Positions 1-8,851 of a DNA stretch of 8,851 nt are shown piece after piece. The first letter of the stretch is position 1. Every line of letters starts with the position of its first letter. The stretch is from a virus (lineage: Duplodnaviria > Heunggongvirae > Uroviricota > Caudoviricetes), in IMG/VR virus record IMGVR_UViG_2778261667_000005, positions 1-8,851 of that record; one strand, given 5' to 3'. The notes under the pieces were generated by a model. The model made no database searches. It was not told the origin of the DNA and was given only the letters and a program-made list of their open reading frames with translations. Both the position numbers and the translations under genes were made by a program.

Positions 1-1
1 G

Positions 2-214
2 GATAAATCGCATAAGGAAACTTGTGAAGTATTCAGCAAACAACCGCCGAGAACCCTCGCCCAATGCGGGCGGGGAGCAGTCACGAAAGCGCCTGGTGGC
101 GGCAGTCATCAGAAAGTGAGCCTGAACGGAAAGCGGTCGGTTTTCCCGGATCACGGTTCAAAGGAAATGCCTGAACCGCTACGCAAGAAAATAATGAGGG
201 ACCTGGGGCTTTAA
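2..214 (+). CDS. hicA: HicA-family toxin (mRNA interferase), 5' end truncated by window edge
   Basis: Frame 2 is open from the first base with no start codon in the window and ends at TAA 212-214. The translated C-terminus ...APGGGSHQKVSLNGKRSVFPDHGSKEMPEPLRKKIMRDLGL has the HicA pattern (GSH, conserved basic patch, P-x-H, C-terminal LGL) and resembles E. coli HicA as I recall it. It is followed 30 nt later by hicB. Not in the ORF track because the start lies outside the window. Confidence 0.7.
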   Translation, partial: DKSHKETCEVFSKQPPRTLAQCGRGAVTKAPGGGSHQKVSLNGKRSVFPDHGSKEMPEPLRKKIMRDLGL

Positions 215-244
215 GCCCCTGCCTTTTTCAATAGGAGTTTCTCT

Positions 245-676
245 ATGTTTAACTATCCAGTAAAACTGGAGCGCGACGACGAAACCGGTGCGTATGTCGT
301 ATCATGCCGCGACCTGCCTTTGTTTAATTCCGTGGGTGACTCAGTTGAAGAAGCCTTGCTTGAGGCTGGTTATGGATTGGTTGCAGCGGTTGCGATTGAG
401 ATTAAAGAACGGCGACCTGTGCCCACTGGTAGCAAGCCAAAAGAAGGAGAGTATGTTGTCTCCCTGCCAGTACTACCAGCAATGAAGGCTGCACTCCACA
501 ACGCGATGATAGAAACTGGTACACGTAAAGCAGAGTTGGCGCGCAAACTCAGAAAAAATGGAACACAGATTGATCGGCTTCTCGACGTCGAACACTCATC
601 AAAAGTTGAAACTGTCGAGCTTGCGCTGCATCAACTGAATAAAAATATCGCTGTATCTGTAACTTCCATGCGGTGA
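245..676 (+). CDS. hicB: HicB-family antitoxin (HicB fold plus C-terminal DNA-binding domain)
   Basis: 143 aa ORF with SD AGGAG at 233-237, 7 nt before ATG 245. N-terminal MFNYPVKLERDDETGAYVVSCRDLP... matches the HicB N-terminal fold pattern; the C-terminal third (...TGTRKAELARKLRKNGTQIDRLL...) looks like a small HTH/RHH DNA-binding module. Sits directly downstream of hicA in the canonical toxin-antitoxin order. Confidence 0.8.
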   Translation: MFNYPVKLERDDETGAYVVSCRDLPLFNSVGDSVEEALLEAGYGLVAAVAIEIKERRPVPTGSKPKEGEYVVSLPVLPAMKAALHNAMIETGTRKAELARKLRKNGTQIDRLLDVEHSSKVETVELALHQLNKNIAVSVTSMR

Positions 677-713
677 CTTCTTTCTTATCGTGCAACACCC
701 CCCCATGAAAGGC

Positions 714-741
714 TTTAACGATGTCACCGCTTCAATATAAA
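714..741 (+). promoter_or_regulatory. Candidate sigma70 promoter for the 99 aa gene (TTTAAC - 16 nt - TATAAA)
   Basis: -35-like TTTAAC at 714-719, 16 nt spacer, -10-like TATAAA at 736-741, about 20 nt upstream of ATG 763. Motif match by eye only. Confidence 0.25.
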
Positions 742-762
742 AAGTTTTAATCGAGGAAAGAT

Positions 763-1062
763 ATGACCAGCATAGAAACGAAACACCTTTGGAATTTGCT
801 CCCTAAGTTTAAAAGCAATAAAGTCCTTCATGCATCAAAAATCAAAAATATCGAGATTATCTCATCGATTGGTAATACCCCTATTTGTGGCTATATCACA
901 TTAATGGAACCCCAAGGCGTAACAGTTCGTGTTGATGCAGCGTTTTTGCAAAAACACCGGCCAGATACTGGCGGCTATCTGCTCGGTTATGAGGACGGTT
1001 ATCTGTCCTATTTGCCGGAAGAACCATTTGAAGATATTTTCAAATATATTGCCGACGCGTGA
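763..1062 (+). CDS. Hypothetical 99 aa protein with acidic C-terminus; no family recognised
   Basis: ORF with SD GAGG at 753-756. Product MTSIETKHLWNLLPKF...YLPEEPFEDIFKYIADA. AT-richer than its neighbours by eye (roughly 40% GC). Followed by an intrinsic terminator. Confidence 0.65.
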   Translation: MTSIETKHLWNLLPKFKSNKVLHASKIKNIEIISSIGNTPICGYITLMEPQGVTVRVDAAFLQKHRPDTGGYLLGYEDGYLSYLPEEPFEDIFKYIADA

Positions 1063-1102
1063 CAAAATACCTTTGTTTTGTTCTTCCTTTGCCTTGATTC
1101 AC

Positions 1103-1136
1103 CGCAAACTCTTCCCGTTTCGCAGTTTGCTTTTTG
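1103..1136 (+). terminator. Rho-independent terminator for the plus-strand hicAB/orf99 unit
   Basis: Stem GCAAACT (1104-1110) pairs with AGTTTGC (1124-1130) around a 13 nt loop, followed by TTTTT (1131-1135). On the minus strand the A-run precedes the stem, so this is plus-strand specific. Confidence 0.45.
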
Positions 1137-1149
1137 AGGCGAACATTCC

Positions 1150-1178
1150 CGCCCGCCACCAAAGCGGGCGTCGGTTTG
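1150..1178 (+). terminator. Second GC-rich stem-loop (possible tandem or backup terminator)
   Basis: CGCCCGC (1150-1156) pairs with GCGGGCG (1164-1170) around a 7 nt loop, followed by tcggTTTgtg. Lies between the convergent orf99 and the 461 aa gene. Confidence 0.3.
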
Positions 1179-1189
1179 TGGGGCATGAT

Positions 1190-2575
1190 TCATTTTTCTA
1201 GGGGAACAGTTACCCGTTTTGTCGGGCTTTCAAACATAACAAAGTTAAGCCCTTTCCCCTCACCATATTCCTGTTCAATCTCATCAGAAACGGCGGTTAA
1301 AATATTACGCAGATCGACATCTCCACCACCGAACATATCGCCAAGCGCCTGTTGTTTATGAATCAGCTCGTCGTTGATTTTTTGTGCCATTTTTTTGAAT
1401 GCTGCCCCCATACGCTTCGCGCTACGATTATTTGCTACGATGAATAGCGCCAACGCCTCCGCTTCCGGCGTGCTGTCGCCAAATAACCCCCTTTGGGCGA
1501 TCACTTCTTCAACGGCCTGACCATTGTCTTTGGCTTCACGAACAAGATTGATTGCTTCCTGGAGTGCCGCAATTGCCTGTGTATCCAGACCATTAACTTG
1601 CTCTATACCGTCCACTAAACCAGTTACGGCGCCATGGTGAACGTCGCCAGACAGCGACTGCATTTGCGCAAAATCGCTGGCAGCCGTATTTAATGCGGTA
1701 AGTATATTGCGCATTTCCGGATCCGGTTCTTCCGCGACAAACCGAACAAGCCTTTCATCCTTGTACGCTTTGGCAAAAATTGCATTCTGGATGCGATCGA
1801 TAAGCTGTTTCGTTGGGCGCCCATCGGCAGTAAGCAAACCTGCCGTCGCTGTATCGCCTATTTCGCGCAAAAACGCACGAATAAACGCATCATTAGACCG
1901 TGCCAGCAGATTTCCATCATCTGAAGGATTAAATAGCGCCATGACGCTCTCAGTGAGAAATTGCGCATCCGCATACGCTTTTTCACTTGCTGCCATCTCT
2001 TGCAGATCGCTAATGTTTGAATCGCGGGCAAATTGAGCGCGGTCTACATCTGTGAGTCTTTCTCGCACCAGTACGGGCATAGACATTTGCGAAATTTCGT
2101 CAGGATTCAGACCAAACTCTTTCGCATGGTCGATCAAGTACTGACGATACTCATCCGCCTGTCCTTGCTCATAGGCACGCCAGATCCCCATACTCCTTCC
2201 GTTGCCGGATTCAACAACGTTGTCCGGACCAACTATCGGCGCTCCGTGGCTGCTCATACCGGAATCCGTTAATTGTGCCGGGCGTAAAGTGGAGGCAATG
2301 CGGTTAACCTGAAGTTTACTGGATAGACGTGTGCGATCACGTGGCTGGAGTTCTTCCGGGAAGGCCGGGTTAATCGTACCGTCAAGGTTATTCGAAATGA
2401 TTAGGCTACTGGCATCAACAACCTTAAAAGCTGTCTTTACCTCTGCGCCTTTGCTGGTGACTACGTAGCTACTTCGTCCCAGGCGAGTTTCTTTCCTCTC
2501 TAATGAAGAAACCAGAGCAATGATGCTGTTAATGTCTGCGGCCTCGGAAAGCGCAGAAGTAACTGACTTGTTCAC
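1190..2575 (-). CDS. ParB/Srx-like domain protein (461 aa); terminal gene of the Dar-like operon (P1 ddrB position), function unknown
   Basis: Long ORF starting at GTG 2575 with SD AGGGGGAG 6 nt upstream. Residues about 50-135 (KVVDASSLIISNN...EELQPRDRTRLSSKLQVNRIAS...GAPIVGPDNVVESGNGRSMGIW) follow the ParB N-terminal domain layout (beta strand, QPR box, helix, G-x-x-R box) with SGNGRS in place of the canonical GERRxRA. QPRDR is encoded at 2333-2347. Confidence 0.6.
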   Translation of the reverse strand: MNKSVTSALSEAADINSIIALVSSLERKETRLGRSSYVVTSKGAEVKTAFKVVDASSLIISNNLDGTINPAFPEELQPRDRTRLSSKLQVNRIASTLRPAQLTDSGMSSHGAPIVGPDNVVESGNGRSMGIWRAYEQGQADEYRQYLIDHAKEFGLNPDEISQMSMPVLVRERLTDVDRAQFARDSNISDLQEMAASEKAYADAQFLTESVMALFNPSDDGNLLARSNDAFIRAFLREIGDTATAGLLTADGRPTKQLIDRIQNAIFAKAYKDERLVRFVAEEPDPEMRNILTALNTAASDFAQMQSLSGDVHHGAVTGLVDGIEQVNGLDTQAIAALQEAINLVREAKDNGQAVEEVIAQRGLFGDSTPEAEALALFIVANNRSAKRMGAAFKKMAQKINDELIHKQQALGDMFGGGDVDLRNILTAVSDEIEQEYGEGKGLNFVMFESPTKRVTVPLEK

Positions 2576-2644
2576 AATACACTCCCCCTATAGAGAAAGC
2601 TGGAAGTGTAAAAAGTGTGTGATTTATGGAGGCACAAGTAAGTG

Positions 2645-2666
2645 AAAGGGGCATTTCAACCCCTTT
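2645..2666. terminator. 7 bp stem-loop in the 94 nt gap between the 122 aa and 461 aa genes (possible attenuator)
   Basis: AAAGGGG (2645-2651) pairs with CCCCTTT (2660-2666) around an 8 nt loop. The T tract is partly inside the stem, so this is weak as a terminator. Confidence 0.25.
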
Positions 2667-2669
2667 TGA

Positions 2670-3038
2670 TTACCCGGCATAACCGTTGGCTTTCACCCAA
2701 CTTATGGTCTTCTCTTTAGCCTGCTCCAACGTCAGGAACTCGCCTACATAGTTTGAGAGTCCACGCAGCACATCAATAAACTCCATTTGCGTGGACTTTG
2801 TGAATTCCCCTCTAAGGAAGTCAGTCACTATCTTAGGAACTTCATCTACAACAGGAGCAGTCTGTTGTTGCAGCTCCGCTGCCGGTTGCGCGGCAGTCCC
2901 CAGTCCCAATTTCAGCATCACATCAACAATCTGCTTACCAATGGTGACGCGTTGCAATACTGGCGCGATTTTCTGCGCCTGCATTAGATCTGATAGCTCT
3001 TTACCTAATTTCAGGCGGTCTAAAACAGAGATAGTCAT
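2670..3038 (-). CDS. Small 122 aa protein, Dar-like operon member (P1 ddrA position, tentative)
   Basis: ATG at 3038-3036 overlaps the stop of the upstream 650 aa gene (TAATG). SD GGGAGG lies 7 nt upstream. No motif recognised; the call is by position and size only. Confidence 0.5.
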   Translation of the reverse strand: MTISVLDRLKLGKELSDLMQAQKIAPVLQRVTIGKQIVDVMLKLGLGTAAQPAAELQQQTAPVVDEVPKIVTDFLRGEFTKSTQMEFIDVLRGLSNYVGEFLTLEQAKEKTISWVKANGYAG

Positions 3039-4990
3039 TAAGCACCTCCCTGCTGAATTTCAGCCAGAATGTTGATCAGGTAGTCAACTGCTGCACCCAC
3101 AGTGGCTTCGTTCTCGTCGTATCGACCTGCACTGATAAGAGCGTTTGCAGCTTCCTGCACATGGTCAAGTTCGGCACTGATTACCGTCAGATCGCGGGAT
3201 GTAAACTGCACCGGGACGGATTTAAGGTACTCCAACGCTTTATCTGCTTCCTGATCAGCTTCAGTTGCCGCTTCTCCAGCGTCTTCCGGCGTTGGCTGTT
3301 GCTCTGGTTCTGTTTGTGGGTGTGATTCTGGCTCAACTACAGGTGCTAATTCAGGCTCTGGCGTTGCTTCGTTTGAATGATTTTGAAGGGCGTTATATAC
3401 GTCCATAATGAAAAGGTTCTCCCCATCACCAAGCGGATAAGCCACGTTCGGAAACTCTTTGCGGAAAAGAATTTTCACTTGCGCCTTGAATGTTTTCAGG
3501 TCACTGCCAAACAGGTCTACATAACCATCAATATGTTTCGACATGCTGGACGCAACCAATTGGCCTGCAAAATCTTTCAGCTCATCTTCATCAGGAAGAT
3601 AGAGCAACTCGTACTGGCTGACTTCTTCATCTGTCAGTTTACGGTCATACGTAATGATACCGTGACGTGCATATTCGTAATACTGATCAGCCTGGTCAGG
3701 ACGTCCAAATACGGCTTTATTTCCTTCCGGTACAGTACCTACACCAGCCGGACGAGACTGGAGTGCATAGCGGTATTTGCCAACATCTTCAAGGCTAGAT
3801 TGATAAAGCGCATGGCGATATTTGCTAACATTCTGTGTTGCCTGGCTGTTATTCTGATAACGGTTCAGATCCTGTGGCAACACATCCACCTTGTATTGTT
3901 CAGCTTTATGTCCGCGATAGGCTTTTAGCAATTTAGTGGCCGCATCTGCAAGAGTACCACCTTTAACAGTGCTGGTATCAATACAGTAGTTACCTTCAGG
4001 CGCTGAGATCGTAACATAGGTTTCAGCGCCTGACGTGACATAGTTAACCACCGCGCCGTTATCCAGTGTAGTTTTACCGCCAGTTGCGAGATTGTGTTTT
4101 ACGTGTCGAAGTTGGTCGCTGAACGCTCGTTCTTTCGTTTTTTCACCTTTAGCAGACAACAATTTATCGCGTTTTGCTTGTAATTCCTCGTTGATGGCTT
4201 TCTGGGCATCAAGTTTTTTTTGCATCTCCGTAAGAGCAGCACGCTTTTCAGTCAGACCACGTTGAGCTACTTCCACCTGATCAATCATTATTGACCGTTG
4301 TTCTGCTAGTTTATCTGCTTCATTGAGATAACTCTCAATATCTGCCTTCATTTTGTCCTGGCGCTCTTTTGCTTTCTTAAATTTTTCGCTGTTACGCTCA
4401 ATCAAATTAGATAGCGCCTGGCATACCTGGCTTAAAGAAACATCTCTCCCACCAATCGGGGCGACAACGTGAGTTACGTTACGCTTATTAAGTAAAAACT
4501 GAAATGCAACCAGTTCATCATTACCCTTGATTTTCGCGCCATCGGCGGTTGGAGAGTGGAAAATGATGCTTGTGCTTTGCCCATCAGTCAGTGGTATCTG
4601 TGCTGTTAAAACAGGAATATTAGCTACGCGACGAACACGCCCGATAATTGCTCCGCCAATACAATTCCGACCATTTTCATCCGCCCCTGCTTCATCAGTT
4701 CCGGCTGATATATTCGTTCCATTCAGGCCACGATTTAGCGCGCGCACGAAAGCCCGCATTGTTTGTGCAAGCCTGATTCTGGTCGTTGTGATGGCCTCAA
4801 ACATAGCTTCGTCGGACACAACAAGAATTTCATTGCCCATATAGGCAAGCTCGATATCTTCTAATGTAGCCGCTTCAAAAATCAGATCGTCTTCACTTAA
4901 ATCCTCCGAAGACCAGCGGCTTGGGGTATAACCAGGAATCGTATCAGCGAAAGTAGATTGAATATTGATCCGTATGGGATTCTTAATCAT
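3038..4990 (-). CDS. DarA-like large protein (650 aa), putative virion-packaged anti-restriction/head morphogenesis component (tentative)
   Basis: ATG at 4990-4988 overlaps the upstream stop (ATGA). N-terminal globular part, a K/E/A/Q-rich predicted coiled coil (residues about 198-292, nt about 4115-4399), and an acidic P/E-rich linker (nt 3239-3373). Size and operon position match P1 DarA as I recall it. The 205 aa upstream product repeats part of its architecture, as expected for Hdf (homolog of DarA fragment). Confidence 0.45.
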   Translation of the reverse strand: MIKNPIRINIQSTFADTIPGYTPSRWSSEDLSEDDLIFEAATLEDIELAYMGNEILVVSDEAMFEAITTTRIRLAQTMRAFVRALNRGLNGTNISAGTDEAGADENGRNCIGGAIIGRVRRVANIPVLTAQIPLTDGQSTSIIFHSPTADGAKIKGNDELVAFQFLLNKRNVTHVVAPIGGRDVSLSQVCQALSNLIERNSEKFKKAKERQDKMKADIESYLNEADKLAEQRSIMIDQVEVAQRGLTEKRAALTEMQKKLDAQKAINEELQAKRDKLLSAKGEKTKERAFSDQLRHVKHNLATGGKTTLDNGAVVNYVTSGAETYVTISAPEGNYCIDTSTVKGGTLADAATKLLKAYRGHKAEQYKVDVLPQDLNRYQNNSQATQNVSKYRHALYQSSLEDVGKYRYALQSRPAGVGTVPEGNKAVFGRPDQADQYYEYARHGIITYDRKLTDEEVSQYELLYLPDEDELKDFAGQLVASSMSKHIDGYVDLFGSDLKTFKAQVKILFRKEFPNVAYPLGDGENLFIMDVYNALQNHSNEATPEPELAPVVEPESHPQTEPEQQPTPEDAGEAATEADQEADKALEYLKSVPVQFTSRDLTVISAELDHVQEAANALISAGRYDENEATVGAAVDYLINILAEIQQGGA

Positions 4991-5604
4991 GCTTCATCCT
5001 CCAGTCGCGCGATTTCTTCTTTAAGCGCACGCGTCTTAGCTTGTTCCTGAGACAAGGCCGCTTTAACGTTATCCGCATCTTGCATTGCCTTGTCTGACTT
5101 GCTTTGGATCTTAGCCAGTTTGTCGTTAGCATTAGCGATATCTTCACGGAGTGCATCACGTGATTCTTTCGCTTCAGCTAATTTCTGAGCGTTAGATTTA
5201 ACTCCCTCCCGCTTCTTATTTCCGTCATCAATATTTTTTGCTACACGAGCAAGTTTTCGAGCTAATGACTTCTGGAAAGAAGTTGCTCCGCGATTAAATA
5301 AAGCCGCGAGAGACTGCCCCAAAGCCGCCATTGTTTTTACTGGCTTGAACGGTACTGTTTTACCATTCAGTTTTATCCCAGATATATCACCGGTATCGTT
5401 AACCTGGACTTCCATTGTCTGTTCATCAATACCAACAAGGGTAAACGTGCGCGTCATAATCCCATCTTTCTTCCTGCCATTACTAGCAGGGATCACCCTC
5501 GCTATCTTGTAACCACCTTTACTGATTTCTTTGACGAGTTTTGCCAGCCCCTTTTCGTTTAACTCATCATAATTAAGAAGAACATAATTAGTCTTATTTG
5601 ACAT
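4987..5604 (-). CDS. Hdf-like protein (about 205 aa): globular domain plus coiled coil paralogous to the middle of the 650 aa protein (tentative)
   Basis: I place the start at ATG 5604-5602, which has a near-perfect SD AAGGAG 6 nt upstream, rather than the GTG at 5619 used by the ORF track (no SD). Stop TGA at 4989-4987 overlaps the next start. Pattern IKLNGKTVPF...ALGQSLAALFNR + coiled coil parallels KIKGNDELVAF...SQVCQALSNLIER + coiled coil in the 650 aa protein. Confidence 0.45.
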   Translation of the reverse strand: MSNKTNYVLLNYDELNEKGLAKLVKEISKGGYKIARVIPASNGRKKDGIMTRTFTLVGIDEQTMEVQVNDTGDISGIKLNGKTVPFKPVKTMAALGQSLAALFNRGATSFQKSLARKLARVAKNIDDGNKKREGVKSNAQKLAEAKESRDALREDIANANDKLAKIQSKSDKAMQDADNVKAALSQEQAKTRALKEEIARLEDEA

Positions 5605-6040
5605 TCCAGTCTCCTTCACGCTTTTCGATCGTAAACTGGCGCTCTATGCTGTCATTGATAGGGAAAATGCGATAAAGCGGATTTAGTCGGCAGTTACCGT
5701 TTGTCAATGTGACTTTCAGATCCCACTTCGTTGGCTCAAGATATTTCGTATCGATGAGCAAATACTCTTCTCTCTCACCGCGTTTTGAAGCGTCAACTGG
5801 TCGCGTTTTCCCTGAAATAACCACCGATGGATTTTTCAGGTCTTGCAACCAATATTCGATTTGAGCGTTGCTCACCCAGCTTCGCTTAACACGTAGCGAA
5901 ACAGGAAATGCTATAGCGGATTCTTTCACTACAGCGTCACCAATACTCAAAATCTCAACGCTCTTGCGGCGAAATAAGAAACGGTCAACGACGGCAACAA
6001 ATGCCATGATAAAAATGAAATAATTTCCAAAGTTACCCAT
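5594..6040 (-). CDS. Membrane-anchored 148 aa protein (one N-terminal TM helix); LydB-like putative holin antagonist/lysis regulator (tentative)
   Basis: ATG at 6040-6038 overlaps the stop of the upstream holin-like gene (TAATG). SD GGTGGAG. N-terminal hydrophobic stretch YFIFIMAFVAVVDRFLF followed by a soluble domain. Confidence 0.4.
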   Translation of the reverse strand: MGNFGNYFIFIMAFVAVVDRFLFRRKSVEILSIGDAVVKESAIAFPVSLRVKRSWVSNAQIEYWLQDLKNPSVVISGKTRPVDASKRGEREEYLLIDTKYLEPTKWDLKVTLTNGNCRLNPLYRIFPINDSIERQFTIEKREGDWNVK

Positions 6041-6366
6041 TATTTCTCTCCACCTTTTCCCCCACTCATAATTACGCTTATGAGATTCAAGACATTGCCA
6101 GCTCTGGACTTCAAGCCTTGCAAGATTTCGCTTCCGTTGTTACTGGTAATCAGAACAACGCAGAAAATGATACCTTCAGGCCATTCTTGGCTAACCGCCA
6201 CTCCATACCCCGCAAGCCCGGCTGTTACCGCAGTAAACAATTCACTCGCAAGATTGAGCAGGGACGCAGAAATGCGCCCGTCTCTAACTCCGAGAAGGAA
6301 TACGCCGGTTCCACTTAGTAGGGATGTTATGACTACTACAGCCAGATTTTCATAATCTGCAAACAT
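6040..6366 (-). CDS. Holin-like small membrane protein (108 aa, three predicted TM helices, charged C-terminus); LydA-like
   Basis: ATG 6366-6364 with GGAGG upstream. Hydrophobic segments LAVVVITSLLSGTGVFLLGV, LLNLASELFTAVTAGLAGYGVAV and GIIFCVVLITS, with C-terminal GGKGGEK. First gene of the coupled operon. Confidence 0.5.
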   Translation of the reverse strand: MFADYENLAVVVITSLLSGTGVFLLGVRDGRISASLLNLASELFTAVTAGLAGYGVAVSQEWPEGIIFCVVLITSNNGSEILQGLKSRAGNVLNLISVIMSGGKGGEK

Positions 6367-6444
6367 ACCCCTCCAGAAATAACATCTAATGCGCCACTAA
6401 CTTAGTCAGTTTGTTATTTCTTTACAGAACATCTTGTGACAGCT

Positions 6445-6464
6445 CCCCGCCCTGTCGGGCGGGG
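6445..6464. other. Perfect 8 bp GC stem-loop (CCCCGCCC tgtc GGGCGGGG) without a U tract, in the intergenic region upstream of the holin-like gene
   Basis: Read directly from the sequence. Sits about 80-100 nt upstream of the minus-strand operon start. Neither strand has a T-run after it. Confidence 0.5.
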
Positions 6465-6530
6465 CTTCCCACTTCTTAGTCCGCACCGTCTGTATGACGG
6501 ATTCTGGCCTTTTTACGATTTGTGCTTCCC

Positions 6531-6562
6531 TTTTGTTTGCGGGATAGCGCTTTTTGTTTGCG
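6531..6562. repeat. 11 bp direct repeat TTTTGTTTGCG x2, spaced 21 bp (two helical turns)
   Basis: Copies at 6531-6541 and 6552-6562, in non-coding DNA upstream of the Dar-like operon. Candidate regulator binding sites. Confidence 0.45.
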
Positions 6563-6667
6563 TCGCAGATTTCGGCTGGCATTAACTTCCGGAGTCTCAC
6601 TGACTCCATCGACACCAGTACACCAATGGGCGCTTTTCCTTTCACGTAATGGGGGGCGCTGACAGAA

Positions 6668-6829
6668 ATGGAATGCGAGCTTATCGAAGCTGACAGCCTC
6701 TGGAACGCGCCGTCAGGCTGAATATGGCAACGGATGAGGAACACACGACTGGAGGAGTGGGAACGCTACAGCGTTCTGGTCAGTCGTGTGGAGCCTGCAA
6801 ATCCTGAATGGACAGATAAACCAGAGTAA
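6668..6829 (+). pseudogene. Decayed remnant of a second tail-fibre assembly (Tfa) gene, C-terminal part only, convergent with the intact tfa
   Basis: Plus-strand frame reads [58 protein letters not shown]. The last about 30 residues match the Tfa C-terminal motif (lambda Tfa ...[26 protein letters not shown]..., and the intact Tfa here ...LINWMKYVQQVEATDTS...). In-frame TGA at 6719-6721. No Tfa-like sequence in any frame further upstream. Confidence 0.5.
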
Positions 6830-6833
6830 AAAT

Positions 6834-6861
6834 TAAGGCCCAGCATCGGGCCTTTTATTAT
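6834..6861. terminator. Bidirectional Rho-independent terminator between the convergent tfa and Tfa remnant
   Basis: Stem AGGCCC (6836-6841) pairs with GGGCCT (6848-6853) around a 6 nt loop. Followed by TTTATTATT on the plus strand and preceded by AAAAATT (T5 on the minus strand). The stops of both flanking reading frames abut it. Confidence 0.65.
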
Positions 6862-7277
6862 TCAGGCTGTTCCGGGAATATTACTGGTAGCGTAGAAGTG
6901 TCAGTTGCCTCAACTTGCTGCACGTATTTCATCCAGTTTATCAGTTGTTGTCTATCTGAATCACTGATAATCCCCAATGAAAGCTGAGTTTGCCAAAACT
7001 GAGTTTTATCCCTGACAAACTGTAGCAAGGATTGTTTCTTCTTTTCCGCCAGATTAATCATTTCAGCTTCAGTCAGTGGCTCTGGTTCTGTTACAACAGG
7101 CTGACCATCTTCATTGGGATTTATTGTTTTCCCCTCTGATTGTTTGTCAAGAAGATAACGATACCGTTTTTCTGAAATGGAAATAGCATCATTAGGCCAT
7201 GACCCATTGCTGTCATAATCATCCTTTAAATTATCATCATAAAAACCATTAGTTGACGGGCTGTAATATATCGTCAT
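6858..7277 (-). CDS. tfa: Tail fibre assembly protein (Tfa/gpU-type chaperone)
   Basis: 139 aa. N-terminal MTIYYSPSTNGFYDD is the typical Tfa start; the C-terminal ...LINWMKYVQQVEATDTSTLP... matches the Tfa C-terminal motif. ATG lies 1 nt after the tail-fibre stop (TAATATG). Confidence 0.8.
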   Translation of the reverse strand: MTIYYSPSTNGFYDDNLKDDYDSNGSWPNDAISISEKRYRYLLDKQSEGKTINPNEDGQPVVTEPEPLTEAEMINLAEKKKQSLLQFVRDKTQFWQTQLSLGIISDSDRQQLINWMKYVQQVEATDTSTLPVIFPEQPE

Positions 7278-7278
7278 A

Positions 7279-8271
7279 TTAATAACCTATAGCTGTCCAG
7301 TACATATTACCATTCCCTTCGCTATTGAAGGTTGCTCCAGTTTTGGATAGAGAGTTAACCGCAATGCTGTAATCAAAACGCCCATGAGCATTGGTAATTG
7401 TTATATTGACGCAGGCAGATGGGAAAGCGATAGGGAAAGTTAATCCCGCGCCAGCATTAGAAATATATCCCCACTGTGTGATGAGTCCAGTTGAAACATC
7501 TTTATGCCAGCCATTAGCGGCTTTTGATACAGTATTTTTTGCTTGATAACGGGAATCAAAATTACCGTAATCTGATGGAGTCACCTGACCTGCGACATTA
7601 ACTGGCTTGTTACTCTGCAAAGTACCATTCTGAAAGCGGAATACATGCTGGCCATTTGCATAAACATCAAGCAGGCCGTCACCGTTCTGTTTAAAACCAG
7701 TATCATTATCGCCAAGAACGATAGAGTTACCGCCAAGAGCATTTGCAGTACCCAGACCAAGAGAACCATTAACCGTTAAACCGTTCCCAATAGTTACTCC
7801 ACCACTGGCATCGTTAATGGTAAGCGGCCTTAAACTATTCCATGTTCCCAGGCTGTCGCCCGAATTGGTCAACATGAAGTATGTGTTTGAACCATCGTTT
7901 CGGATAAAGAATCCATAGTTACCCTGTACGATGCGGAAGCCGTTTCCTGATTTGGAAACAATCTCGCCAGCAGCCGTTAAACCGCCGGTAAGAGTTCCTC
8001 CTGTTATTGGCAATGCACCAATATCTTCAGGCGTGAGGTTAATGTCTTTTGAACCATCAAACGAAACGGAATTAATCTTTCGCGCGGTTTTTAGTTTTGT
8101 GGCTGTTGAGGCGTTTCCGGACAGCTCACCAGAAATGCCACCAACAACTGTTAGATCACCAGTTATTGTGCCGCCTGAACTTTCCAGTTTTTTAGCAACA
8201 TCACTCTTAATAGAGTCGATTTCTTTTTTCAGATTAGTTATATCTGCTGGTATCGTTGTCACTGTTGCCAT
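7279..8271 (-). CDS. Tail fibre protein: stand-alone 330 aa distal (receptor-binding) segment of lambda Stf / side-tail-fibre type
   Basis: Own ATG with SD TAAGGA 8 nt upstream. Contains ...ATKLKTARKINSVSFDGSKDINLTPEDIGA... and ...GGNSIVLGDNDTGFKQNGDGLLDVYANGQHVFRFQNG...GNFDSRYQ..., which are characteristic of lambdoid/P2/Mu-family side tail fibre distal regions. Immediately followed by tfa. Confidence 0.75.
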   Translation of the reverse strand: MATVTTIPADITNLKKEIDSIKSDVAKKLESSGGTITGDLTVVGGISGELSGNASTATKLKTARKINSVSFDGSKDINLTPEDIGALPITGGTLTGGLTAAGEIVSKSGNGFRIVQGNYGFFIRNDGSNTYFMLTNSGDSLGTWNSLRPLTINDASGGVTIGNGLTVNGSLGLGTANALGGNSIVLGDNDTGFKQNGDGLLDVYANGQHVFRFQNGTLQSNKPVNVAGQVTPSDYGNFDSRYQAKNTVSKAANGWHKDVSTGLITQWGYISNAGAGLTFPIAFPSACVNITITNAHGRFDYSIAVNSLSKTGATFNSEGNGNMYWTAIGY

Positions 8272-8280
8272 ATTAATTCC

Positions 8281-8559
8281 TTACGCCCATTCCCGCAGCG
8301 GTTGTTCTAATTGAACTTCAAAACCATCAAACATTTGTTGTTTCAAACTGTCGTTTAAAATACGAACATTAACAAAGAAGCCATCATTTTTAATCACTGT
8401 TGGTTCTTCGTTCTCGCCGTTTGGTATTTCGGTATATGTAATACCTACAACATCAAGAAGGATGTTGTTTTGCAGTTCTTCATTATCGTGCCAGGATATA
8501 CTCTCTAAAAAAGAGTCGTATTCTGCCCTGTCTCTGAATTTCAACGTAATATCTTTCAT
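8281..8559 (-). CDS. Hypothetical 92 aa protein between a LamG-domain protein and the tail fibre (possible adaptor/linker)
   Basis: ATG overlaps the upstream stop (TAATG). In the same reading frame as the downstream fibre gene, separated by TAA plus 3 codons. No motif recognised. Confidence 0.5.
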   Translation of the reverse strand: MKDITLKFRDRAEYDSFLESISWHDNEELQNNILLDVVGITYTEIPNGENEEPTVIKNDGFFVNVRILNDSLKQQMFDGFEVQLEQPLREWA

Positions 8560-8851
8560 TAAATAACCTCAGCCATTTGTTGGTCTGTCAATTCTTTATG
8601 CCAAATGCGTAAATTTTTCACATGACCAAATAAATGACGTAACCCCGCTGTAGTCTGGCCTCCAATACGGATGGTTGCAGAGTTCTGAATATAGGACCAC
8701 GTAGTCTTTGTTTCGCTGGATATGCGCCCGTTACTTACTGAGCACGTAGACTGATCTGACTTTACACGCATCCCCATAACCATTTTTTCAAGCGATGCGT
8801 TTTCGTTTACCCGTCTGTTAGCTCCTCCAATATCGCAATAAGGAAATCCGT
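8559..8851 (-). CDS. C-terminal end of a larger protein with a LamG/concanavalin-like (Laminin_G_3-type) domain; probable tail/baseplate or receptor-binding protein. N-terminus outside window
   Basis: The minus-strand frame stays open to the window end (...GFPYCDIGGANRRVNENASLEKMVMGM...), so the M at 8783 used by the ORF track is internal. C-terminus ...ATIRIGGQTTAGLRHLFGHVKNLRIWHKELTDQQMAEVI matches the terminal beta-strand signature of LamG-like jelly-roll domains (F-G-h-h-D/N-h-R-I-W/Y-x-x-x-L-S/T-x-x-Q/E-h). Confidence 0.45.
   Translation of the reverse strand, partial: GFPYCDIGGANRRVNENASLEKMVMGMRVKSDQSTCSVSNGRISSETKTTWSYIQNSATIRIGGQTTAGLRHLFGHVKNLRIWHKELTDQQMAEVI

Follow-up and report, generated by a model that had tools for sequence, protein, structure and literature searches.

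A stand-alone 92-residue gene and a free-standing distal fiber gene are probably intact parts of a portable tail-fiber cassette in a P1-like phage-plasmid

Is a short open reading frame (ORF) that lies in frame with, and just ahead of, a distal tail-fiber gene the broken end of a longer fiber gene, or is it a gene in its own right? The question is raised by an 8,851-nucleotide stretch of a caudoviricete genome (positions 1 to 8,851 of IMG/VR record IMGVR_UViG_2778261667_000005; hereafter the window), where a 92-amino acid (aa) ORF (8559..8281) and a 330-aa ORF share one frame on the minus strand (8559 minus 8271 is 288 nt, or 96 codons) and are separated only by the TAA stop at 8283-8281 and three sense codons. 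An earlier note, made from the sequence alone, had offered two explanations: a nonsense mutation or recombination joint that divided a larger fiber gene, or a modular arrangement of an adaptor plus a receptor-binding protein. Its description of the locus is right in all coordinates, as is its observation that the 330-aa ORF, which runs from an ATG at 8271-8269 to a stop at 7281-7279, has its own Shine-Dalgarno sequence (AAGGA, 6 nt before the ATG). A split seems attractive at first, in that distal regions of this kind are usually the C-terminal third of long fibers. Comparison with relatives shows, however, that the two genes are intact parts of a conserved, portable cassette, found in many coliphages that are otherwise unrelated, which most likely builds a multi-protein tail fiber (Table 1).

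The two genes belong to the distal part of the tail-fiber operon of a P1-like phage-plasmid, and the operon is adjoined by darA/ddrA/ddrB/hdf/lyd genes of the P1-like backbone. On the minus strand, an S-like proximal fiber gene is followed by the 92-aa gene, the 330-aa gene, a tail-fiber assembly chaperone gene, and a terminator. The junctions between these genes either overlap or span 1-9 nt: the ATG of the 92-aa gene overlaps the stop of the upstream fiber gene (TAATG, 8561-8557), and a single nucleotide (1 nt) separates the stop codon of the 330-aa gene from the chaperone (tfa) ATG. The hairpin 3' of the chaperone gene is predicted to be a bidirectional terminator closing the operon. An independent sample (L073) has the same arrangement, as do 21 complete E. 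coli genomes.

Table 1. Features of the fiber operon and its flank, in coordinates of the window
Feature	Coordinates	Strand	Basis
S-like proximal tail-fiber gene, 3' end, last 96 codons	8562..8851	-	phrog_1419 'tail protein', E 2e-42; weak Laminin_G_3
92-aa gene, conserved and stand-alone, putative partner of the LamG-ended fiber	8281..8559	-	phrog_1361
9-nt spacer GGAATTAAT (GGA ATT AAT)	8272..8280	-	sequence reading
Distal tail-fiber protein, 330 aa	7279..8271	-	Pfam PF21446, PF20744, PF21882; PDB sequence matches
N-terminal motif MATVTTIPADITNLK, residues 1-15 of the 330-aa protein	8271-8227	-	conserved across lineages
Predicted helix, residues 9-31 of the 330-aa protein		-	AF2 monomer model, low confidence
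Collar repeat duplicated from the proximal fiber, residues 29-89	8187-8005	-	alignment to proximal and conventional S fibers
Mu S / T4 gp34-like shaft, residues 85-196	8019-7684	-	Pfam, PDB matches
gp53-like / R-pyocin-like tip, residues 246-330	7536-7282	-	PF21882, PDB matches
Tail-fiber assembly chaperone, 139 aa, TFA/gpU type	6858..7277	-	Caudo_TAP, E 1.3e-27; phrog_188
GC-rich hairpin, T-runs on both sides	6835..6854	.	terminator scan
Frameshifted 3' remnant of a second tail-fiber assembly gene (U'), codons ~131-175	6694..6829	+	blastx, blastn to relatives
cin invertase fragment, codons 84-119 only, internal stop	6578..6685	+	blastx, 81% identity to Cin of L013; blastn

The identification of the 330-aa protein as an Stf-type distal region is borne out by comparison with known fibers. 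A conventional, single-chain P1-like S protein of 1149 aa aligns through its residues 864-1085 with residues 80-245 at 58.6% identity, and Pfam recognizes Gp34_trimer, gp37_trimer, and Gp53-like_C domains, with scores above the cut-offs for PF21446 (103.6 bits against 27) and PF21882 (53.1 bits against 24.9; E 4.6e-14). Sequence matches to proteins of known structure give the same picture: the Mu S shaft (5yvq, E 5e-27); the C-terminal trimerization region of T4 gp34, which residues 85-174 resemble (4uxe/5nxh, E ~1e-22), together with a weak match to gp37; and the C-termini of the R1 and R2 pyocin fibers, which match residues 246-330 (6cxb, E 2e-8; 6cl5; 6ct8), although here it is a short, free-standing fiber that bears the pyocin/gp53-type tip. 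An AF2 monomer model of the protein was of low confidence, with a mean pLDDT of 61 that fell below 50 in the tip. The cognate assembly chaperone (Caudo_TAP) is encoded downstream of the tip. This 139-aa protein is 52% identical to the TFA that lies behind a Mu-like prophage fiber bearing the same tip, rising to ~80% over the first 70 residues as counted by eye on the alignment. Because tip and TFA co-occur in this unrelated prophage, the two appear to move as a pair.

Upstream, the proximal fiber gene runs off the window and is known here from its last 96 codons only; used as a query, this 96-aa fragment returned only short partial proteins. Its C-terminus is the end of a ~430-aa domain resembling LamG and the GTA head spike fiber, and it finishes with ...GGQTTAGLRHLFGHVKNLRIWHKELTDQQMAEVI. 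In full-length relatives, the N-terminal part is P1 Sc, and these proteins match both NCBIfam NF048003 (GTA_spike_fiber) and the capsule-binding head spike fiber of the Rhodobacter gene transfer agent (RcGTA; 6tb9, E 3e-5). Comparison with the conventional S fiber locates the mosaic boundaries. Over residues 1-518, the LamG-ended S protein and conventional S agree at 97% identity, and they part company beyond GNADTATKLKTAR; the collar at this boundary is repeated in residues 29-89 of the 330-aa protein. By alignment, conventional S has no counterpart of the LamG domain, of the 92-aa protein, or of residues 1-28 of the 330-aa protein. The locus thus resembles the S/U systems of P1 and Mu in its P1-like backbone, its Mu S-like shaft, and the gpU-type chaperone downstream, and departs from them in that the receptor-binding part is separate from Sc: the LamG domain, the 92-aa gene, and a new N-terminus are interposed.

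The 92-aa protein proved to be a full-length member of a family of its own. It matches phrog_1361 over profile positions 1-92 of 92 (E 5.3e-36), a family of stand-alone proteins encoded beside lateral or side tail-fiber genes and present in 181 phage records. Its close homologs are all 92 aa long, except for one entry of 75 aa, and the family ends in an invariant QPLREWA. Among 1.84 billion representative proteins the query matched 62 clusters, in which every credible match was 34-150 aa long. In species-representative genomes, a scan with the close alignment of the 92-aa protein found no match, and an alignment of a distant subfamily found six loci, of which Leclercia, Silvania, and Atlantibacter account for five. 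The family keeps strict company. The gene lies directly 3' of a LamG-ended fiber in P1-, P2-, lambda-, T5-, T1-, 9g-, and HK578-like phages, and in all of the ~60 loci with a readable upstream ORF its start overlaps the stop of a long fiber ORF carrying the same C-terminal signature (...RHLFGH..N.RIWHK.L.D.Q...). Wherever complete in the locus, this upstream ORF exceeds 590 aa. The N-termini of these fibers are specific to the platform that carries them: P2 type (PF12571), lambda Stf type (PF08400), P1 type (after gp16 and R), T5-like (after the collar protein), and those of T1-, 9g-, and HK578-like phages. Hence the modular alternative of the earlier note stands in outline, as the cassette recurs behind all of these platforms; the adaptor role that it gave to the 92-aa protein is a separate matter, taken up below.

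What follows the small gene is conserved only at its beginning. In most lineages sampled, the next gene starts with the motif MxTxTxIPxDIxxLK, and the downstream proteins resemble one another only in the first ~15 residues, of which nine positions are invariant; the bodies behind this shared N-terminus are unrelated and measure 166, 231, 294, 330, 510, or 576 aa. The motif occurs in 54 of the 120 best homologs of the 330-aa protein (at residue 7 in 53 carriers and at residue 8 in one), with no internal copy anywhere among the 120. Its 54 carriers are free-standing proteins of 262-408 aa with interchangeable tips of five or more classes, the gp53/pyocin-like tip being rare among them (2/54). 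A separate scan confirmed two additional motif-bearing loci, both with the small gene upstream.

We propose that the cassette would build one fiber with two receptor-binding elements. The proximal fiber would carry the platform-specific N-terminus and a LamG-like tip, and the 330-aa protein would be a separately translated, trimeric distal fiber whose MxTxTxIPxDIxxLK peptide and following helix dock non-covalently onto the tip formed by LamG and the 92-aa protein. The 139-aa chaperone would fold the tip of the 330-aa protein. The 92-aa protein, positioned like a tail-fiber assembly protein, may itself be a dedicated partner of the LamG tip, either as a folding chaperone or as a bound cap.

A different role for the small protein, that of a physical adaptor or hinge joining the proximal and distal fibers much as gp35 does in T4, has some appeal: wherever a cassette has both fiber genes, the 92-aa gene stands between them and is tightly coupled in translation, and the putative docking motif is seen only downstream of it. 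We nevertheless consider this role unlikely. Two phage records, Jouyvirus ev207 and PhiR41_1, like many lambdoid prophages, have a cassette with the LamG fiber and no distal fiber gene, and yet they retain the 92-aa gene in intact, conserved form, so the small protein cannot be only an adaptor. For the same reason its tie is with the LamG-like domain upstream and not with the distal fiber, and calling it an adaptor, as the earlier note did, is not established. Nor was any similarity, in sequence or fold, found between the 92-aa protein and the T4 hinge proteins gp35 and gp36. A search of the literature for a described role of the small protein or the cassette returned only the general statement that the lateral fibers of siphoviruses may comprise one, two, or more proteins (BASEL paper, PMC8594841).

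It is considerably less probable that the 330-aa protein is an independent short fiber, attached to the baseplate or tail and merely co-located with the pair of LamG-ended S and 92-aa proteins. Many myoviruses do carry such fibers; however, the N-terminal motif persists in siphoviruses and myoviruses whose baseplates and tail tips are unrelated, and the LamG domain and the small protein are the sole partners that all these genomes have in common.

The shared reading frame could in principle be functional, if occasional read-through of the TAA gave a 92+330-aa fusion that tethered the small protein to the distal fiber. Consistent with this idea, most lineages sampled have a spacer of 9 or 12 nt with no in-frame stop. 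Against it, the in-frame relation expected of programmed stop-codon read-through is not conserved across lineages: Dhillonvirus KarlBarth, L088, and L089 have an 11-nt spacer, while that of L085 and L087 measures 2 nt, and both lengths put the ORFs out of frame. In addition, in-frame spacing of 9-12 nt is also found where the downstream gene encodes an unrelated 97-aa membrane protein. The spacing has its own explanation, in that the TAA and the spacer together form the Shine-Dalgarno sequence of the 330-aa gene (TAAGGA); with a ribosome-binding site that begins inside the stop codon of the 92-aa ORF, the spacer is short and falls in frame. Among stop codons, TAA is, moreover, the one that leaks least in E. 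coli. We therefore find functional read-through scarcely credible. Given the out-of-frame lineages, no statistical meaning can be attached to the shared frame, which is incidental and goes no further than chance plus common descent would take it.

The idea that a single ancestral fiber gene was recently split here, leaving the 92-aa ORF as a decaying N-terminal fragment, is refuted by the survey of homologs, despite the shared frame and the mere TAA and three codons between the ORFs: the 92-aa sequence matches no fiber protein and is a complete, stand-alone family member down to its QPLREWA terminus, no fused gene occurs in the 62 clusters drawn from the 1.84 billion proteins or among the best 120 homologs of the 330-aa protein, and stop, spacer, and start are all conserved in P1-, P2-, and lambda-like relatives, in which the spacer is identical. 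Both genes are conserved and free-standing, which is essentially the observation that the earlier note had named as telling against a split. The result is deflationary for the in-frame "split" as first described, since the arrangement is an ordinary and conserved one.

The proposed two-chain fiber has partial parallels elsewhere. The long tail fiber of T4 (gp34-gp35-gp36-gp37, with chaperones gp38 and gp57A) likewise has separately encoded proximal and distal proteins meeting at a non-covalent joint. Here the joint is deduced from the genes, and there are no homologs of gp35 or gp36; the junction would use the LamG-like domain and the 92-aa protein in their place. In the T5-like phages DT57C and DT571-2, the branched lateral fibers consist of LtfA and LtfB, the second of which is thought to be attached to the first via its N-terminus (PMC4728585, PMC10713586). 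As a model for the cassette we rejected this pair: the LtfB N-terminus (LtfB / phiEco32 gp15 type; MSRPLMPKSG..., first 50 residues, by inspection) is unrelated, and ltfA and ltfB have no small gene between them. Other T5-like phages, such as L6jm, carry the present cassette rather than the DT57C-type arrangement. The LamG-like domain has its counterpart, by sequence and by NF048003, in the RcGTA head spike fiber Rcc01080 (6tb9; PMC7296036, PMC10218006), which has been investigated as a receptor-binding protein for an extracellular-polysaccharide receptor (PMC10218006). Rcc01080 is a head spike, whereas the LamG-like domain here terminates a tail fiber and is coupled to the 92-aa gene.

This operon sets host range in P1-like phage-plasmids, and host range in turn influences transduction and the spread of resistance genes. 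If docking occurs as proposed, the N-terminal peptide and the LamG/92-aa pair would constitute a natural plug and socket already working on P1, P2, lambda, T5-like, and T1-like chassis, and so offer a ready means of exchanging receptor-binding tips when phages and transducing particles are engineered. A widespread family of "hypothetical" proteins would thereby gain a function, and the annotation of these fiber loci with one, two, or three genes would be explained. A broader reading, plausible but tentative, is that a portable "cut-and-dock" module is made up of the LamG domain, the 92-aa protein, and the N-terminal peptide. It would insert at a duplicated collar repeat of a continuous tail fiber, convert this into a two-chain fiber with two receptor-binding elements, and have spread among myoviruses and siphoviruses with unrelated baseplates. 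On this view the 92-aa protein would be a tip partner or adaptor of a new type, and, where the module sits inside the Cin segment of P1-like plasmids, inversion would toggle between a one-protein and a three-protein fiber.

Relatives with intact cin and C-segment versions do exist, and in these the cassette lies inside the Cin-invertible segment. The window differs from the P1 switch in this respect: in place of an intact cin and two alternative Sv-U sets, it holds a 36-codon piece of cin and a 45-codon remnant of U', the alternative Sv'/U' set having been deleted. Matches to the U' remnant are annotated "tail fiber assembly protein (x2)", and the remnant, oriented opposite to the fiber operon, reads as a relic of the invertible C segment's other half. 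With the neighboring inversion switch degraded, the fiber set of this phage-plasmid is therefore fixed.

The window belongs to a P1-like phage-plasmid, and hundreds of E. coli plasmids of ~90 kb carry DNA about 92% identical to it. The earlier note had described a 330-aa distal fibre ORF that has its own Shine-Dalgarno sequence and shares a frame with the preceding 92-aa ORF, and a reading of the sequence confirmed that description. The two starts lie 288 nt apart, so the ORFs share a frame, and the Shine-Dalgarno sequence of the 330-aa gene consists of the TAA stop of the 92-aa gene plus GGA. The order 92-330-139-lyd-darA-ddrB recurs in L073, a locus assembled from an independent read set; thus, the arrangement is not an assembly artefact. 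L073 also has the plus-strand pair that lies at the window's left end, past ddrB: a HicB-like antitoxin ORF (143 aa, 245-676) and a 99-aa ORF of unknown function (763-1062).

Coordinates of the fibre genes, their domains and related features, in the window unless a locus in another genome (L-number) is named
Feature	Location	Strand	Remarks
ddrB, ddrA, darA, hdf, lydB/lydA genes	1190-6366
Upstream fibre ORF, partial	8849..8562	-	TAA stop overlaps 92-aa ATG (TAATG)
92-aa ORF	8559..8281	-	TAA stop
Spacer GGA ATT AAT, 9 bases	between 92-aa stop and 330-aa start	-	sequence reading
330-aa ORF	start 8271, stop 7279	-	sequence reading
139-aa ORF	7277..6858	-	begins 1 nt past 330-aa ORF
GC-rich hairpin	6835-6854		closes fibre unit; terminator scan
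U' remnant	6694-6829	+	oppositely oriented tail-fibre assembly gene; frameshifted 3' 45 codons
cin invertase fragment	6578-6685	+	codons 84-119 (36 codons), internal stop
Gp34_trimer (Pfam)	residues 57-152 of 330-aa protein
gp37_trimer (Pfam)	residues 197-248 of 330-aa protein
Gp53-like_C (Pfam)	residues 260-330 of 330-aa protein
LamG-ended fibre, P2 H-like N-terminus	L010		behind V-W-J-I baseplate genes
LamG-ended fibre, lambda Stf-like N-terminus	L011, L042		behind lom
LamG-ended fibre, P1 S N-terminus	L014		behind gp16, R
LamG-ended fibre, T5 collar-attached fibre	L6jm
LamG-ended lateral fibres	Warwickvirus, Seuratvirus, Dhillonvirus
LamG-ended fibre	48 kb RepA plasmid		with P2-like baseplate
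Cassette in C segment	L014 3789-9648		joined to Sc
Cassette in C segment	L013 4585-9731		flipped against cin
LamG domain and small gene in both C-segment arms	L077 1498-10253; p24AR0070B
94-97-aa predicted membrane protein (MDISPLLHALCAVAAQ...)	L042 3792-4085; L079 4292-4585; L081 3289-3573

The earlier note had also suggested, as one of two options, that a larger fibre gene was split, and it was right that long fibres normally have such a region as their C-terminal third, as residues 80-245 of the 330-aa protein match residues 864-1085 of a conventional P1-like S (58.6%). The split itself was rejected. The 92-aa family stands alone: an exhaustive search with its profile through 1.84 billion representative proteins returned 62 clusters and no fused homologue, with credible hits all of 34-150 aa; three longer hits were weak, and the two inspected were repeat proteins without similarity to fibres. 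Moreover, the LamG-like domain that ends the upstream fibre, the 92-aa protein and residues 1-28 of the 330-aa protein have no counterpart in the conventional P1-like S. When a P1-like fibre ending in the LamG-like domain (S-LamG, 974 aa) was compared to the conventional S (1149 aa), the two were 97% identical over residues 1-518 and diverged directly after GNADTATKLKTAR; residues 29-89 of the 330-aa protein repeat this collar segment, with 62% identity. The fibre halves are separated by an inserted module, consisting of the LamG domain, the 92-aa gene and the new N-terminus (residues 1-28), rather than by a mutation. The shared frame is real and the arrangement ordinary, not an unusual split; the underlying module is of moderate interest and lends itself to experiment.

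The closest complete plasmid is pPSS-10_3 (L002). Its distal fibre gene (14850-16028) is homologous to that of the window over only ~62 N-terminal codons, and the annotation treats the remainder as an N-terminally truncated pseudogene. Similarity breaks off close to the duplicated GNA.TATKLKTARKIN collar repeat, a possible hot spot of recombination.

Of the upstream gene, 96 residues are visible; they form the end of a phrog_1419 'tail protein'. In full-length relatives the LamG-like domain spans ~430 aa and matches NCBIfam GTA_spike_fiber and the Rhodobacter GTA head spike fibre (6tb9), which has been investigated as a receptor-binding protein with extracellular polysaccharide as the receptor (PMC10218006). 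In all of the ~60 loci with a readable upstream ORF, the ATG of the small (92-aa) gene overlaps the stop codon of a long fibre ORF with the ending ...RHLFGH..N.RIWHK.L.D.Q...; where the locus contains this ORF in full, its length is >590 aa. The N-terminus of this fibre varies to suit the host virus. At L011 (1846-11420), P2 tail genes come immediately after a lambda-type cassette behind lom (Stf-LamG, 92 aa, 303 aa and tail-fibre assembly chaperone, TFA), and their order and product lengths are those seen downstream of the P2-like locus, L010. Either lambda-like and P2-like prophages recombined via the cassette that they share, or the junction is a chimera of metagenome assembly.

The 92-aa protein is a full-length member of phrog_1361 (E 5e-36), a family of unknown function, and has no match in Pfam, NCBIfam or PDB. 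It was found by tblastn in 181 phage records and, in the annotated rows listed, is a separate 'hypothetical protein' adjoining a lateral or side tail-fibre gene. Its C-terminus, QPLREWA, is invariant in close relatives, a P.R.W motif is kept in distant ones, and a reasonably confident AF2 model (pLDDT 83.6) has a small alpha/beta domain. The small gene is kept in cassettes that have no distal fibre gene, including those of many lambdoid prophages next to sitABCD and of the phage records Jouyvirus ev207 and PhiR41_1, which argues that its product serves the LamG domain itself; it also occupies the position held by tfa in lambda. Its role is uncertain; the favoured reading is that it acts on the LamG tip, as a dedicated chaperone or a bound cap, and perhaps helps to form a docking site as well. 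A pure hinge is less likely than this chaperone or cap. In these cassettes without a distal fibre, the following gene encodes a 94-97-aa predicted membrane protein with no Pfam or NCBIfam match. It is conserved in lambdoid prophages, ev207 and the 108 kb element PhiR41_1, adjoins the sitABCD manganese-transporter cargo in L042 and ev207, and may function in exclusion or conversion.

The spacer after the small gene is 9 nt in P1-, P2- and lambda-type E. coli elements, T5-like phages and Seuratvirus, 12 nt in Warwickvirus and PhiR47_1, 11 nt in Dhillonvirus KarlBarth and the Atlantibacter and Leclercia loci L088 and L089, and 2 nt in L085 and L087. The range is narrow because the Shine-Dalgarno sequence begins within the stop codon, and in-frame spacing of 9-12 nt is also found ahead of the unrelated membrane-protein gene. 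Read-through of the 92-aa TAA, which would yield a joined product, finds no support in the sequence.

By sequence comparison, the 330-aa protein matches the structures of Mu S (5yvq) and T4 gp34 (4uxe, 5nxh), and its tip those of the R1 and R2 pyocin fibres (6cxb, 6cl5); the 139-aa protein is a Caudo_TAP TFA in Pfam. Among the 120 best homologues of the 330-aa protein, 54 have the start MATVTTIPADITNLK..., with the motif at residue 7 or 8 in every case (residue 7 in 53) and internal in none. These carriers (262-408 aa) are almost identical over the N-terminal ~240 residues and have at least five different C-terminal tips, the gp53-like tip of the window being rare (2 of 54). The 330-aa gene is thus complete and recurrent. 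A Mu-like E. marmotae prophage encodes a 375-aa fibre whose last ~80 residues are ~87% identical to the window's tip, as counted by hand on a printed alignment, and the TFA behind it is 52% identical to that of the window; tip and chaperone thus move together.

Across lineages, proteins encoded after the small gene have only their first ~15 residues in common, with M1, T3, T5, I7, P8, D10, I11, L14 and K15 invariant. The bodies beyond are unrelated (166, 231, 294, 510 and 576 aa), and several carry an S74 intramolecular chaperone. In an independent scan, the small gene preceded the motif gene in both of the extra motif-bearing loci confirmed. Because the baseplates or tail tips of cassette-bearing phages are unrelated, leaving the LamG domain and small protein as the only common partners, the N-terminal peptide probably docks onto this pair. 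A distant small-protein subfamily (ending P.RVWA) occurs in Silvania, Atlantibacter and Leclercia chromosomes (L086, L088, L089, L090), where the three loci with a readable upstream ORF have a fibre ending ...RNLRIWH.ALTDNQI.GLR. In L086, L089 and L090, the next gene begins with another conserved N-terminus, MANRID..EL..., which may be a second docking type; the L086 protein has an S74 chaperone.

Multi-protein and branched fibres are already known, and the cassette is built from different parts. The T4 gp34-37 fibre is also multi-protein, but homologues of its hinge were not found with the cassette. DT57C LtfA/LtfB is another such fibre (PMC4728585, PMC10713586); however, the N-terminus of LtfB is unrelated to the cassette's motif and no small gene lies between ltfA and ltfB. 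The BASEL paper remarks that lateral fibres are possibly built of one, two or more proteins (PMC8594841), and our literature search found no paper describing the small protein or the docking motif.

The cin fragment and U' remnant are all that the window keeps between the fibre operon and lydA, and the P1-type invertible fibre switch is dead, with the fibre set locked in one orientation. Decay of cin and of the C segment is already on record as a variable hot spot in P1-like plasmids (PMC6906374). The orientation is that shown as 'on' by L014, with the upstream part beyond the window. In intact relatives, the segment inverted by Cin contains all of Sv-LamG, the 92-aa gene, the distal fibre gene and TFA, which lie tail to tail with a conventional Sv'-U' set. 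Thus, where cin is intact, inversion would switch the fibre between a three-protein and a one-protein form.
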